DNA from: Octopus vulgaris
Taxonomy: Eukaryota
DNA length: 64,000 nucleotides
Reading direction: 5' to 3'
Assembly (NCBI GenBank): GCA_951406725.2
Contig: OX597818.1
Span: 82,770,001-82,834,000 of the forward strand
Positions within the stretch are counted from its first letter, which is position 1. Each line of letters begins with the position of its first letter. Below are positions 2,404 to 62,882 of the stretch, piece after piece. Made by a program: the position numbers and the translations under genes. The notes under the pieces were generated by a model. That model searched no databases. It was given only the letters and a program-made list of their open reading frames with translations, and had not been told where the DNA came from.

Positions 2404-2603
2404 AGGGAGAGTTTACGAAAAAAACAAAAGACCAAGACAGCTGGTGTACAAAACAAACAGATGTATTAGTATAATGCTCAGGAATAGAAAGTATTTTACG
2501 TTTCGAGCCTACGCTCTTCTACAGAAAGGGACACAGAAAAAACAAACAAGGAGAGAAACAAGGAGAGAAAAAAAATGTGCGTAGTGGCTAACGACCTATC
2601 ATG
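2404..2603 (-). mobile_element. Short HHR-bearing element, family H2
   Basis: Similar to 62697-62882 (same strand) and 21596-21826 (opposite strand). 3' end abuts (TA)n. Confidence 0.75.
2494..2528 (-). ncRNA. Minimal type I hammerhead-like motif, CUGUAGA core
   Basis: Reverse complement reads ttt-CTGTAGA-A-GAGC-gtag-GCTC-GAAA-cg-TA-aaa. Confidence 0.55.
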
Positions 2604-15140: not shown

Positions 15141-16049
15141 CGCCACACACCATGATAGATATTGACAGGTATGCTGCTTGATTACCGTCATGATTATCAT
15201 CGTTTTACAATCAGCTGTGTACATCTATCTTCTCTGTACTCCATTCCTATATAATTCCAGAATTTGTAAGGAGTTCAAGGGCTCATTCTTTATTCATACT
15301 TTCAGAATATACTTTCAGATTGTCTACAACATACGCATGTGTTGGTTTGATGTTAATACCACATGGACCGATTTCATAACTTTTATATTTCATCAGCAGA
15401 TAGAAAACTGGGACCACTGCAAGCATAGAATGCTTCACGGGGCGGATTACTTTGATGAATCATAACCAAATTTTGCTTTATTTTTCAAAGTTAATAACAC
15501 CATTTAATGTATTAAACTAAGTTTAGGTTGGTAGACTACGACGAACTCAGATTGTCCATGGATTTAATTATAGTCTCTTGAAAGGTTACGAAGGTCAGTG
15601 GTAATCATTCGTAGAATTCAGAATAGAATGCTTTCTTGTCGTCTGGACAAAGTACACCCGAACATCTCCAATACCATCGCTCTTGTGACACCGTAGCTTT
15701 GATAATTGCAATTCAATTAGCACATCCCGAAACACTTTTCTGCACAAGTTTCTCTTCAGTGTATTCGTGGCACAAATTCTCTTGTTTTTGACTTATTACT
15801 GAAAATATCAGCCGGCTTTAGGTACGTAAGGATGCCTTTATATACGCATAGATGTTTAAGTCTGTTGGTGCGTATTTACATCAGCAGCTAACTAGCTAAA
15901 GTCATGCGATAAATAAATGTCTATACAGAGGGATATATAAAAGTCTATATATAATGGTGAATATCCACCTGATTCTAAGTATATGTACATATGTATGGAT
16001 GCATATATAAATGTTTATAAAATGAATATGACGATGTCAATACACAGGA

Positions 16050-20843: not shown

Positions 20844-21387
20844 GTCTATCTATCTGTCTATCTATCTGTCTGTCTGTCTGTCTGTCTATTTTTCCGTCTA
20901 TAACTACATGGTTTTGTGTTCAGTTCCACTACGTGGTACACTCGTCAACAGACTTCTATTCGAGCTCCTGATCCACCTAATACTTGTGAGCAGGTTGAAT
21001 AGACGGAAACTGAAAGAATTCCTATATAAATATATATATGTATATGACTGTGTGTGCAGTTGTGCGGAGGGGGTGTTGCGCGCGTTGGTATATTTGTTTT
21101 ACTTTTGTATTTCGTTCCGTATCATCTTTTGAGAACCGGTTTGGGTTTGTTTACATTACTGTAATTCATCGGATAGCAAAAAGAGCCCGATAAGATAATA
21201 GCAGACTTTTAAAAATGAGCCTCAGCGTTATGCCTGAAGCAAGCAATTCCGTTTGAAACGTAAAAGACTTTCACAATTTCCCGAGCGCCAACTCTTTGTT
21301 GTTCATACACCTGTCTTCGTCTTCGTTTTTCTGTAAATTTCAACTACATATACATACATAAAAATATATATATATATATATATATAA

Positions 21388-21570
21388 ATGCGCTCTTTTC
21401 TATGGCGTATGTGTTCCCCAGCTGGACGGGAGGCCAGTCCATCGCAGCGTTACTCACTTCTGCTAGATGAGTGGACTGAAGCAACGTGAAATAAAATGCT
21501 TTTCTCAAGAACACAACGCGTCGCCCTGTCCAGGAATCGAAACGTCAGTCGTACGATCTTACGATCATGG
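21388..21570 (-). mobile_element. Mosaic SINE (family D middle, family C tail)
   Basis: Shares ttgcttcagtccactcatct with 9757-10082 and 29979-30306, and gagtaacgctgcgatggactggc...cgtccagctggg with 33404-33702. Confidence 0.65.
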
Positions 21571-21595
21571 TGCTGACATATTTATATATATGTTG

Positions 21596-21825
21596 ATTCG
21601 CTAGCTTTTGCACGCATATTTTTTTCTCTCCTTCTTTCTGTGTTTTTTTTCTCTGTGTATCTTTCTGTTGAAGGGCGTAGGCTCGAAACGTTAAAGACTT
21701 GTTTCATTTATATTTCCTGAGCGCCATACTAATACAATTGTTTGTTTGTATTCCACCTGCCTTCGTCTTTTGTTTATTTCCGTAAACCTGCCTTCGTCTT
21801 TTGTCTATTTTCATAAAGCTTACCG

Positions 21826-21826
<1 letters not shown>
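21596..21826 (+). mobile_element. Short HHR-bearing element, family H2
   Basis: Reverse-complement match to 2404-2603 and 62697-62882. Ends at (TA)n. A partial copy lies at ~21250-21345. Confidence 0.75.
21660..21697 (+). ncRNA. Minimal type I hammerhead-like motif, CUGUUGA core
   Basis: tcttt-CTGTTGA-A-GGGC-gtag-GCTC-GAAA-cg-TT-aaaga: 5-bp stem I, 4-bp stem II, palindromic ACGT stem III. Confidence 0.6.
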
Positions 21827-21859
<33 letters not shown>

Positions 21860-39695: not shown

Positions 39696-40106
39696 AGGCG
39701 TAGGAGCGGCTGTGTGGTAAGTAGCTTGCTTACCCACCACATGGTTCCAGGTTCAGGCTCACTGTGTGGCACCTTAGGCAAGTGTTTTCTACTATAGCCT
39801 CCGGCCGACCAAAGCCTTGTGAGTGGATTTGGTAGACGGAAACTGAAAGAAGCCCGTCGTATATATATATATATGTATGTATGTGTGTGTATATGTATGT
39901 ATGTCTGTGTTTGTTCCCCCAACATCACTTGACAACCGATACTGGTGTGTTTACGTCCCCGTAACTTAGCGGTCCGGCAAAAGAGACCGATAGAATAAGT
40001 ACTAGGCTTACAAAGAATAAGTCCTGGGGTCGATTTGCTCGACTAAAGGCGGTGCTCCAGCATGGCTACAGTCAAATGAGTGAAACAAGTAAAAGAGTAA
40101 AAGAGT
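39696..40106 (+). mobile_element. SINE family A, full length
   Basis: Closely matches 23607-24025 and 52531-52935. Confidence 0.92.
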
Positions 40107-40672
40107 ATATGTTCCAAACACCCGCTTGATAATAACATAGTTATTTTACTTAATTCCTTTTGAAAAATTATCGAATCAATGACCGTGTAATTCAATAAAA
40201 ATACAAGAAACTACAGTGTTCCAGTATGGCCACAGCCTTTAGGTTGTAGCACATAGAAGAATGAAAAGATAAATGTGTTTAAATATTGTTTATCTTCATG
40301 GACATCTCGGATATTAGCATAATATTTTATATTCTCCTGTTTATGCATTCAGTTAAGTGTTGATTTGAAAGGTAAACCTAGTCTTCGGTGCTTCCAACTA
40401 TGTTAGATAAGTATTACAAGAAACCTTCACTTACAGAGAAACTACTTACTTGGGACCAGTTCAAATATTTTTGAGAAATATTCGATCCTGTAAAGGGCGG
40501 TTCGCTGCAGTTTGTCGTAGAGAAAAAAAGTCAGGTTTAAAGCATAAAACAATAAAAAAGATTAAAAAATCAATGCATGAAATAGTTCTCGGCAAAAAAT
40601 ACTACGAGAAGCAATTCTAAGGTGACTAGAAAGCCTTGCTTCTTTTATAAGAGTTTCACTCCGTATCTAGTG

Positions 40673-45492: not shown

Positions 45493-45622
45493 CTTTAATA
45501 ATAATAAAAAACTTTATTTAGGGATCTTTCGAGCGGGATAGGTTACTCGATCTGAAAAATATTCTAACTGGAACCTATTTGCAAGGTCATGCACTGTTTA
45601 TCTTGATATATATATAGATAAG

Positions 45623-46006
45623 AAAGAGGGACAGAAATTCAAGATCAAATCTAACTTTACTTGTGCCTCTGAAAATATAATTTATGTCATAAAATGCTCG
45701 GGCTGCCACCAAGACTACGTGGGATCCACGGGACTATCACTCAGACGTAGATGCACACTGCATCGACAACAGATTGCATTCCCAGAATACAGAATGATAC
45801 CTTCTAGTGAGCACATTGAGAAATGCGCAAAGCAACTACTACCACAATTTTTAATCTTTCCATTTTACCAATGTGCTATCGGATCATCAACACAAATTAG
45901 ACTAAACAAGGAAACATTCTTCATTGAAAAGTTCAAGCCCAGACTTAACCATGCCAACATACTGATACAGAGAAATTCACACCAAGGGAAAGGAAAAAAA
46001 ATTTAA
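45623..46006 (+). mobile_element. Penelope-like retroelement 3' fragment: GIY-YIG endonuclease domain
   Basis: Open frame KEGQKFKIKSNFTCASENIIYVIKCSGCHQDYVGSTGLSLRRRCTLHRQ...EHIEKC...RLNKETFFIEKFKPRLN has the PLE GIY-YIG signature (IY...CxxC...YVG.T, R, H, H, E, LN). 5'-truncated at a short TA run. Confidence 0.9.
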
Positions 46007-52530: not shown

Positions 52531-52927
52531 AGGCGCAGGAGCGGCTGTGTGGAAAGTAGCTTGCTAACCAACCACATGATTCCGGGTTCAGTCCCATTGC
52601 GTGGCATCTTGGGCAAGTGTCTTCTACTATAGTCTCGGGCCGACCAAAACTTTGTAAGTGGATTTGTTAGACGGAAACTGAAAGAAGCCTGTCGTATATA
52701 TGTGCATATATATGTATATGTATGTGTGTGTATATGTTAGTGTGTCTGTGTTTGTCTCTAGCATTGCTTGACAACCGATGCTGGTGTATTTACGTCCCCG
52801 TCAACTAGCGGTTCGGCAAAAGAGACCGATAGAATAAGTACTAGGCTTACAAAGAATAAGTCCCGGGGTCGATTTGCTCGACTGAAGGTGGTGCTCCAGC
52901 ATGGCTGCAGTCAAATGACTGAAACAA

Positions 52928-52935
<8 letters not shown>
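52531..52935 (+). mobile_element. SINE family A, full length, tail expanded into (GA)n
   Basis: Family match. (GA)n continues to ~52989. Confidence 0.92.
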
Positions 52936-52990
<55 letters not shown>

Positions 52991-61282: not shown

Positions 61283-62050
61283 TACTCTTTTACTCTTTTA
61301 CTCTTTTACTTGTTTCAGTCATTTGACTGCGGCCATGCTGGAGCACCGCCTTTAGTCGAGCAACTCGACCCCGGGACTTATTCTTTGTAAGCCCAGTACT
61401 TATTCTATCGGTCTTTTTTGCCGAACCGCTAAGTGACGGGGACATAAACACACCAGCATCGGTTGTCAAGCAATGCTAGGGGGACAAACACAGACACACA
61501 AACACACACGCACACACACATATATATGCATATATATGACGGGCTTCTTTCAGTTTCCGTCTACCAAATGCACTCACAAGGCTTTGGTCGGCTCGAGGCT
61601 ATAGTAGAAGACACTTGCCCAAGGTGATATATATTTTTCTTCTTACTTGCTTGTTTCAGTGATGTAAATTCGGCCACGCTGAAGCATTGCCTTTAGTCGA
61701 ACAAATCAACCCAGGACATATTTTTTGTAAGCCTGGTACTTATTCTATCAGGCTTTTTTGCCGAACCGCTAAGTTACAGGGTCGTAAACACACCAACATC
61801 AGTTGTGAAGCGATGGTGGGATGACAAACACGGACAGACACACAGAGCATCACACACACACACAAACACACACACACACACTCACACACACACACACACA
61901 CACACAAATACACATATACAACGGACTTCTTTCAGTTTCTGTCTACCAAATCCAATCTCAAGGATTTGGTCGGCCCGAGGCTATAGTAGAAGACACTTGC
62001 CCAAGGTGCCTCGCATTGGGACTGAACCCGGAACCATGTGGTTGGGAAGC
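61283..62050 (-). mobile_element. Two tandem SINE family A copies (61283-61626, 5'-truncated; 61643-62050)
   Basis: Reverse-complement match to the family. (TACTCTTT)n tail at 61283. Confidence 0.9.
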
Positions 62051-62697: not shown

Positions 62698-62882
62698 GGG
62701 AGAATTCACAAAACGCAATAGACGAAGACAAGTGGTGCAGACAACAAACAGATGTATTAGTATAACGCTCGGGAAGTGAAAAGTCTTTAACGTTTCGAGC
62801 CTACGCTCTTCCACAGAAAGGAACACTGAAAGAAACAAGGAGAGAAAATAAAGAATGTGTAATGGCTAGCGATCTATTATGG
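62697..62882 (-). mobile_element. Short HHR-bearing element, family H2
   Basis: Similar to 2404-2603. HHR-like fold at 62785-62820 (cttt-CTGTGGA-A-GAGC-gtag-GCTC-GAAA-cg-TT-aaag). 3' end abuts (TA)n. Confidence 0.75.

Follow-up and report, generated by a model that had tools for sequence, protein, structure and literature searches.

Introduction

The small dimeric hammerheads of Penelope-like elements (PLEs) in the set of Lunse 2017, in which stem III is diminished, are reportedly cleaved as dimers. The minimal hammerhead ribozymes (min-HHRs) described in the pLTRs of metazoan PLEs are motifs of type I that have a short stem I, an extra base between positions 9 and 10.1, a G10.1-C11.1 pair, a palindromic 15.2/16.2 segment without stem III, and an NUH site; they occur in both pLTRs and as thousands of truncated single copies (PMC4209133). 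The octopus motif analyzed here shares all of these features and departs from the class in its core, which is not CUGANGA. The described consensus is CUGANGAH, with U3-A8 as a reported core variant, whereas U6 is the norm in the octopus family, which has a 4-bp stem II and would be missed by the min-HHR descriptor of that paper. The min-HHRs of PLEs are weak even with A6 (PMC4209133).

The PLE Poseidon PAc of Anolis also carries a hammerhead in its pLTR, and no RNA ends were seen at its cut site (PMC11167929), just as no truncation peak was observed in octopus. In PAc, the hammerhead and the start codon overlap, and cleavage took place only in the presence of the element's protein (PMC11167929), whereas the octopus motif lies approximately 760 nt upstream of the Met codon and its cleavage is putative. 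A natural change at position 6 is likewise known from phage Bcep176, whose A6C hammerhead keeps a low activity (PMC3088659, PMC7151607), while cleavage in the octopus family is putative. Bcep176 provides a single phage sequence with C6; in octopus, the base is U6, present in tens of thousands of copies and in the active form of a eukaryotic retroelement.

The octopus element shares with the Neptune-type EN+ PLEs a single ORF with a reverse transcriptase (RT), a Cys-rich linker and, at the C terminus, a GIY-YIG domain, as well as partial-tandem pLTRs, 5′ truncation, and (TA)n targets (PMC8557442). It differs from them in its non-canonical hammerhead core; the likeness is one of features. No A6U hammerhead was found in the literature searched, where the Lunse 2017 set, repeat databases, and one supplement file of PMC4209133 stood outside the comparison. 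The motif string is absent from the supplement of PMC8557442, the main text of PMC13282606 contains neither "hammerhead" nor "ribozyme", and nothing on position 6 was found in passages of PMC11014351. The element class and the motif class are already known, and U6 as a family norm would be the new part.

Hammerhead Motifs in the Window

The window is the whole 64-kb stretch of octopus DNA under analysis. When both strands were searched for the hammerhead pattern of CUGNNGA followed by a stem and GAAA, CTGTTGA was found at 21665 (+), CTGTAGA at 2524 (−), and CTGTGGA at 62816 (−), which confirms the three dispersed copies listed in the initial annotation. Downstream of its core, each motif has an additional A, a stem II of 4 bp closed by a GUAG loop, the sequence GAAACGU, and then U or A. 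The range of 21660-21697 given by that annotation runs exactly from stem I to stem I, and the hammerhead anatomy and the ACGU palindrome that it described were found in the scan and in the alignments of the family. A fourth match of the scan, at 15396, has a 3-bp A/U stem II and was placed outside the U6 hammerhead family. The three copies can be aligned over approximately 180 nt, and their 3′ ends lie in TA repeats. The three motifs therefore belong to one repeat family and are not chance matches; the true U6 pattern of 25 nt occurs 17,610 times in the genome, and its reversed form 0 times. The features are as follows.

21590..21827, + strand: pLTR remnant from the youngest PLE subfamily, a 5′-truncated 3′ end flanked by TA-rich repeats
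21660..21664, + strand: stem I, 5′ strand, pairing with 21693-21697
21665..21672, + strand: core C3-U4-G5-U6-U7-G8-A9 and the extra A between 9 and 10.1; U6 is at 21668
21673..21684, + strand: stem II and GUAG loop; GGGC/GCUC in this copy, GAGC/GCUC in the family
21685..21692, + strand: G12-A13-A14, palindromic A15.1-C-G-U16.1, and U17, assigned from the sequence and the min-HHR model of PMC4209133
21693..21697, + strand: stem I, 3′ strand, pairing with 21660-21664
21756-21786 and 21787-21817, + strand: 31-bp tandem duplication near the 3′ end of the 21590..21827 copy
2411..2594 (ends approximate), − strand: second truncated 3′ end, N7=A subfamily, with C3 at 2524 and a GUA site
62700..62880 (ends approximate), − strand: third truncated 3′ end, N7=G subfamily, with C3 at 62816 and a GUU site
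21226..21350 (ends approximate), + strand: fourth 3′ end of the same lineage, old and decayed with a damaged core (tail-profile match, score 24)

The cut position of the 21665 motif is predicted to lie between 21692 and 21693, and its ACGU palindrome is predicted to form stem III only as a dimer. The GUA and GUU sites of the two minus-strand copies agree with the GUU or GUA site noted earlier. Stem II had been given as GAGC/GCUC or GGGC/GCUC; it is indeed paired, but the G in this stem at 21665 stems from an A-to-G change private to that copy (1 of 85 copies have G) and not from covariation. An Rfam scan gave no hammerhead among the best 150 of 296 matches, which were microsatellite miRNA noise. 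Between the two PLE ends on the plus strand, a distinct SINE-like stretch at approximately 21420-21577 also contains GAAACGTC, and no hammerhead stem was found in it by the pattern scan.

The Element Carrying the Motif

The three window motifs come from a Penelope-like retroelement, of which they are truncated 3′ ends; it encodes an RT and, at the C terminus, a GIY-YIG endonuclease. The initial annotation had missed this element, the described min-HHR class, and the fourth, decayed copy. The window copy at 21590-21792 is identical in 189 of 204 positions (93%) to the 3′ end of the intact element L201, and the long copies carry RT and GIY-YIG coding sequence upstream of the motif on the same strand. 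The three window copies are passive fragments without a function of their own. A non-LTR retrozyme, consisting of short non-coding head-to-tail repeats with type I hammerheads, was rejected as the source, as the copies are dispersed truncations of a coding element.

A protein search of the genome gave 150 scored places, many of them near-identical, with open frames of up to 1214 aa, from which 20 long-ORF loci were picked by ORF length or score and fetched. CUGUUGA lies downstream of the ORF in all 20 loci and is the core of all 34 sense-strand motifs within them. A second sense-strand motif lies upstream of the ORF in 14 of the 20 loci; 13 of these are true pLTR tandems, with direct repeats of approximately 0.5-1.6 kb flanking the ORF and a unit of 4.4-4.6 kb, and the fourteenth (L215) consists of two separate ends. 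L201 has two pLTRs with 99.8% identity over 1580 nt, and the family has therefore been active recently. In four elements, both pLTRs carry a variant that is absent from all other sampled elements, as it should be if a single template region gives rise to both repeats. Two further layouts are found at L064 (G000:C1:1878305 and 1878452), a head-to-head inverted motif pair approximately 150 bp apart, and at L065, where two motifs separated by 1.55 kb lie in a partial tandem; both are natural layouts for dimer tests.

Homologues of the coding sequence carry PF00078, and several carry PF01541 too, while a Pfam search of six broken element fragments gave 0 families. The L201 ORF is 1082 aa long from its Met, with RVT_1 at 454-643 (31.9 bits, above the cutoff), a weak GIY-YIG match at 874-907 (E 0.006, below the cutoff), the motifs DKGG, YIDD, and IIYC...YIGQT, and the linker CSRPRCRTC (CX4CxxC) between the RT and the endonuclease. 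Its open frame (L201:2940-6581) begins 132 codons before the first Met, and a long Pro/Ser-rich tail follows the endonuclease. The 5′ motif is located approximately 760 bases upstream of the first Met, and TA repeats at the 3′ ends of the copies match (TA)n targets. The element is an EN+ Penelope-like element, with a single ORF in which the RT precedes the C-terminal GIY-YIG domain and with partial tandem pLTRs. The linker and the (TA)n targets suggest that it probably belongs to the Neptune clade; a CX2-5CxxC linker also occurs in Nematis and not in Neptune alone (PMC8557442).

Variation between Subfamilies

The initial annotation inferred selection on an A6U variant from its three copies and proposed a comparison of core and flanking positions across many genomic copies. 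Three repeat copies could not have shown selection, and the comparison across many copies was mis-aimed, as inserted copies decay at the core anyway, with 363 U4 variants and 723 U6 variants against 17,610 intact matches (exact genome-wide matches). Since inserted copies decay everywhere, the test for selection was made between master lineages. In a tree of 196 copies, the subfamilies form a ladder, although the tree is weakly rooted (its rooting on L189 is unreliable) and the order of the ladder is thus weakly supported.

Among eight subfamily consensuses, none of the 13 core columns varies, whereas variation is present in 68 of the 134 flank columns that are free of gaps (Fisher p=2e-4). None of the 13 other columns of stem II, the loop, and the palindrome varies, nor does any of the 8 columns of stem I, so that the GUAG loop and the extra A show no more variation than the catalytic bases. 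When the flank set is made stricter by leaving out the pyrimidine tract, 30 of 79 flank columns vary against 0 of 13 in the core (p=0.004) and 0 of 34 in the core and stems together (p=3e-6). In the six younger subfamilies, the same stricter flanks give p=2e-4 for the 34 motif columns and p=0.03 for the core. Between families, 4 of 8 stem pairs have changed on both sides with 98% of the cells paired, in a sample of 13 hand-picked related sequences.

The contrast between an unvarying core and varying flanks, together with the stem covariation, argues that the fold is maintained by selection in the master lineage. This part of the earlier inference holds. Selection for U itself at position 6 is not supported, because about half of the flank columns are invariant as well and C6 and A6 are common in the old subfamily.

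The changes that do occur in the motif are confined to N7 and H17, the two positions that a hammerhead tolerates changing (PMC4075628). N7 has changed in 6 of the 7 steps of the ladder, a number reached by no other among the 170 gap-free columns, and H17 changes in 3 steps, only between A and U; these step counts are partly circular, as three subfamilies were assigned by those letters. The frequent change at N7 could be rate tuning and is partly an effect of the subfamily assignment. The freedom of N7 noted in the initial annotation is also evident among 77 copies found by their tails, which have A in 25, U in 24, C in 17, and G in 11.

The Base at Position 6

Exact matches to the 25-nt pattern in the 2.8-Gb genome number 17,610 with U6, 226 with A6, and 497 with C or G at this position; among the first 100 listed of these 497, approximately 89 have C and 11 have G. 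C or G at position 17 gives only 162 exact matches. In a tail search in which the core was ignored, 98 matches were examined, 21 of which have no ungapped motif, and U6 is present in 75 of the remaining 77. In contigs of runs under four other organism codes, variants were found at N7 and H17, and no variant was listed at U6 (3% threshold).

The constancy of U6, as claimed earlier, thus holds for the tail-found copies but does not extend to the old subfamily, where the first 100 listed of 745 matches have U in 77, C in 14, A in 8, and G in 1. In old copies retrieved independently of the core, C6 occurs in 6 of 26, against 3 T-to-C changes at 286 other T sites. These counts suggest that position 6 was first in flux and was later fixed as U. 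A separate basal A6 subfamily was considered and rejected, as the copies with A6 or C6 are not grouped into clean clades; therefore, an order from A to C to U is not established.

A loose descriptor gives 7,790 genome-wide matches with A6 and 24,481 without it. The 7,790 matches represent a sister family with the canonical CUGANGA core in the same genome (G000, e.g., L172-L200), which has the same GAGC/GCUC stem II, varying loops of the UCC/UUU type, and a different but related tail. A third family (L189) has a GGAC/GUCC stem. In a small old subfamily (L116 and G000:C1:3779215), stem II contains a U-U mismatch and the loop is UUCG, while position 6 is still U.

Truncation Junctions

Three copies seemed to start at the cut site, and truncation at this site was therefore considered as a mark of cleavage. 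The junction counts show no sharp pile-up there. In a hand count of TA-flanked junctions at 88 loci, among 100 of 112 matches listed, the A-run after the cut has three A in 32 cases, two in 22, one in 13, four in 12, and other lengths in 9; the control count at GAAAC runs (by hand, 45 loci) gave 14, 13, 12, and 2, with 4 others. The excess of three-A junctions comes from the GUU subfamilies (18 of 32) and is explained there by TA microhomology with the target. In a further sample of 32 loci, the junctions are spread on both sides of the cut site. The canonical A6 family also shows no junction peak, with 2 of 27 at the cut and 6 of 25 at the control, where the pattern covers part of the family; the junctions thus speak neither for nor against activity.

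Predicted Fold and Competing Explanations

In published work, A6 is among the milder core positions, where changes cost 10-100-fold (PMC4075628), and a mutational scan found single mutants in the CUGA turn to be low in activity (PMC9901934). The natural A6C hammerhead has low but detectable activity (PMC3088659) and cleaves at 0.29-0.31/min in 1-3 mM Mn2+, while A6C placed in a good ribozyme lowers the rate to as little as 3.55e-6/min in 0.3 mM Mg2+ (PMC7151607).

The minimum-energy fold predicted for the motif of the intact element is a rod in which U4-G5-U6-U7 is paired with A14-A15.1-C-G. The predicted probability of the 6-A15.1 pair varies with N7 between 0.45 and 0.98 if position 6 is U, and is 0.00 if it is A, C, or G. 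The rod is predicted to lie 0.2-2.4 kcal/mol below the open junction, the folding z-scores are unremarkable (−0.44 to 0.47), and in dimer co-folding the active dimer is not the minimum. The predicted U6-A15.1 rod serves both main readings of the motif, either as an off state to be opened by a dimer or a protein, or as a binding fold. These two readings correspond to the alternatives of the initial annotation, an active variant and an inactivated fold kept for recognition, and both are still live.

We consider it somewhat more probable than its negation that the motif is a minimal type I hammerhead with U in place of A6, likely slow and assisted by a dimer and a protein, which would process the element's RNA. 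In this mechanism, pairing of U6 with A15.1 would keep the monomer as an inactive rod, the dimer and the element's protein would aid slow cutting after H17, and the cutting would process the tandem transcript of the element. The slow, assisted hammerhead is favored because the positions that change are exactly those that catalysis leaves free, while C3 and U16.1, which are unpaired in the rod, never move. CUGUUGA in both pLTRs of young intact elements, approximately 4.5 kb apart, is a further point for it. Against it, U6 is predicted to favor the rod that sequesters the core, and the invariant GUAG loop and extra A would fit protein recognition equally well.

The slow hammerhead may be extended by the tentative and rather doubtful proposal that U6 is a safety catch in the most successful hammerhead lineage here, where a rod-locked monomer with a slowed site would be cut only after the pairing of two copies and release by the element's protein (or by Mn2+). 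If this were the case, position-6 variants, to which three quarters of the matches of a single loose descriptor in the octopus genome belong, would be a large working class of animal hammerheads that searches with CUGANGA have missed.

A dead ribozyme kept as an RNA rod, recognized by the element's RT or by a host protein, is possible although we hold it unlikely. The rod would consist of stem II, tandem G-A pairs, U6-A15.1, G5-C15.2, U4-G16.2, and stem I, and would need U6; it is the predicted minimum-energy fold of the intact element's motif, and because N7 lies opposite A14 and H17 is bulged in it, both positions could be free. Loop II is invariant in the U6 family and variable in the A6 sister family, the hammerhead of the Anolis PLE is dispensable for insertion in vitro (PMC11167929), and Naiads are reported to proliferate although they lack canonical hammerheads (PMC8557442). 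However, the old subfamily also saw the spread of C6 and A6 forms, in which the rod pair cannot be made; C3 and U16.1 are mismatched in the rod and yet never change; no rod pair shows compensation; and the predicted gap to the open junction is small (0.2-2.4 kcal/mol).

It is highly improbable that the block owes its conservation to a function within the pLTR at the DNA level or in processing, such as that of a promoter, splice, or 3′-end signal, with the hammerhead shape as a relic. Promoters are known in PLE pLTRs (PMC6765202), the 5′ motif lies well upstream of the first Met (approximately 760 bases), and the whole block is sequence-fixed in the lineage, but such a signal would explain neither the covariation of the stems between families nor why precisely N7 and H17 should be free to change. 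The least credible explanation is that a dead motif hitch-hikes without selection in a successful master lineage: about half of the flank columns are also invariant and core positions do decay in inserted copies, but it is largely refuted by the 0 of 34 motif columns against 30 of 79 stricter flank columns (p=3e-6; core, p=0.004) and by the six younger subfamilies (p=2e-4 and 0.03).

The octopus family provides a natural test of the role of PLE hammerheads, with intact near-identical elements and a subfamily ladder that moves only N7 and H17; the genome also offers an old subfamily in which A6, C6, and U6 occur side by side and a sister family with the canonical A6. Should the U6 form cleave, A6 would be dispensable in vivo and animal hammerheads would be undercounted in surveys (24,481 non-A6 against 7,790 A6 matches). 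Should it not cleave, the fold conserved by this active PLE would be that of a dead ribozyme, and a role other than catalysis would be indicated.

Two other repeats were observed in the window. A fragment at 45542-46003 (+) belongs to a different PLE-type GIY-YIG endonuclease, with 33% identity to the L201 domain over 75 aa, and a dispersed repeat of approximately 245 nt occurs at 39861-40107, 52710-52952, and 61285-61537 with 87-90% identity.
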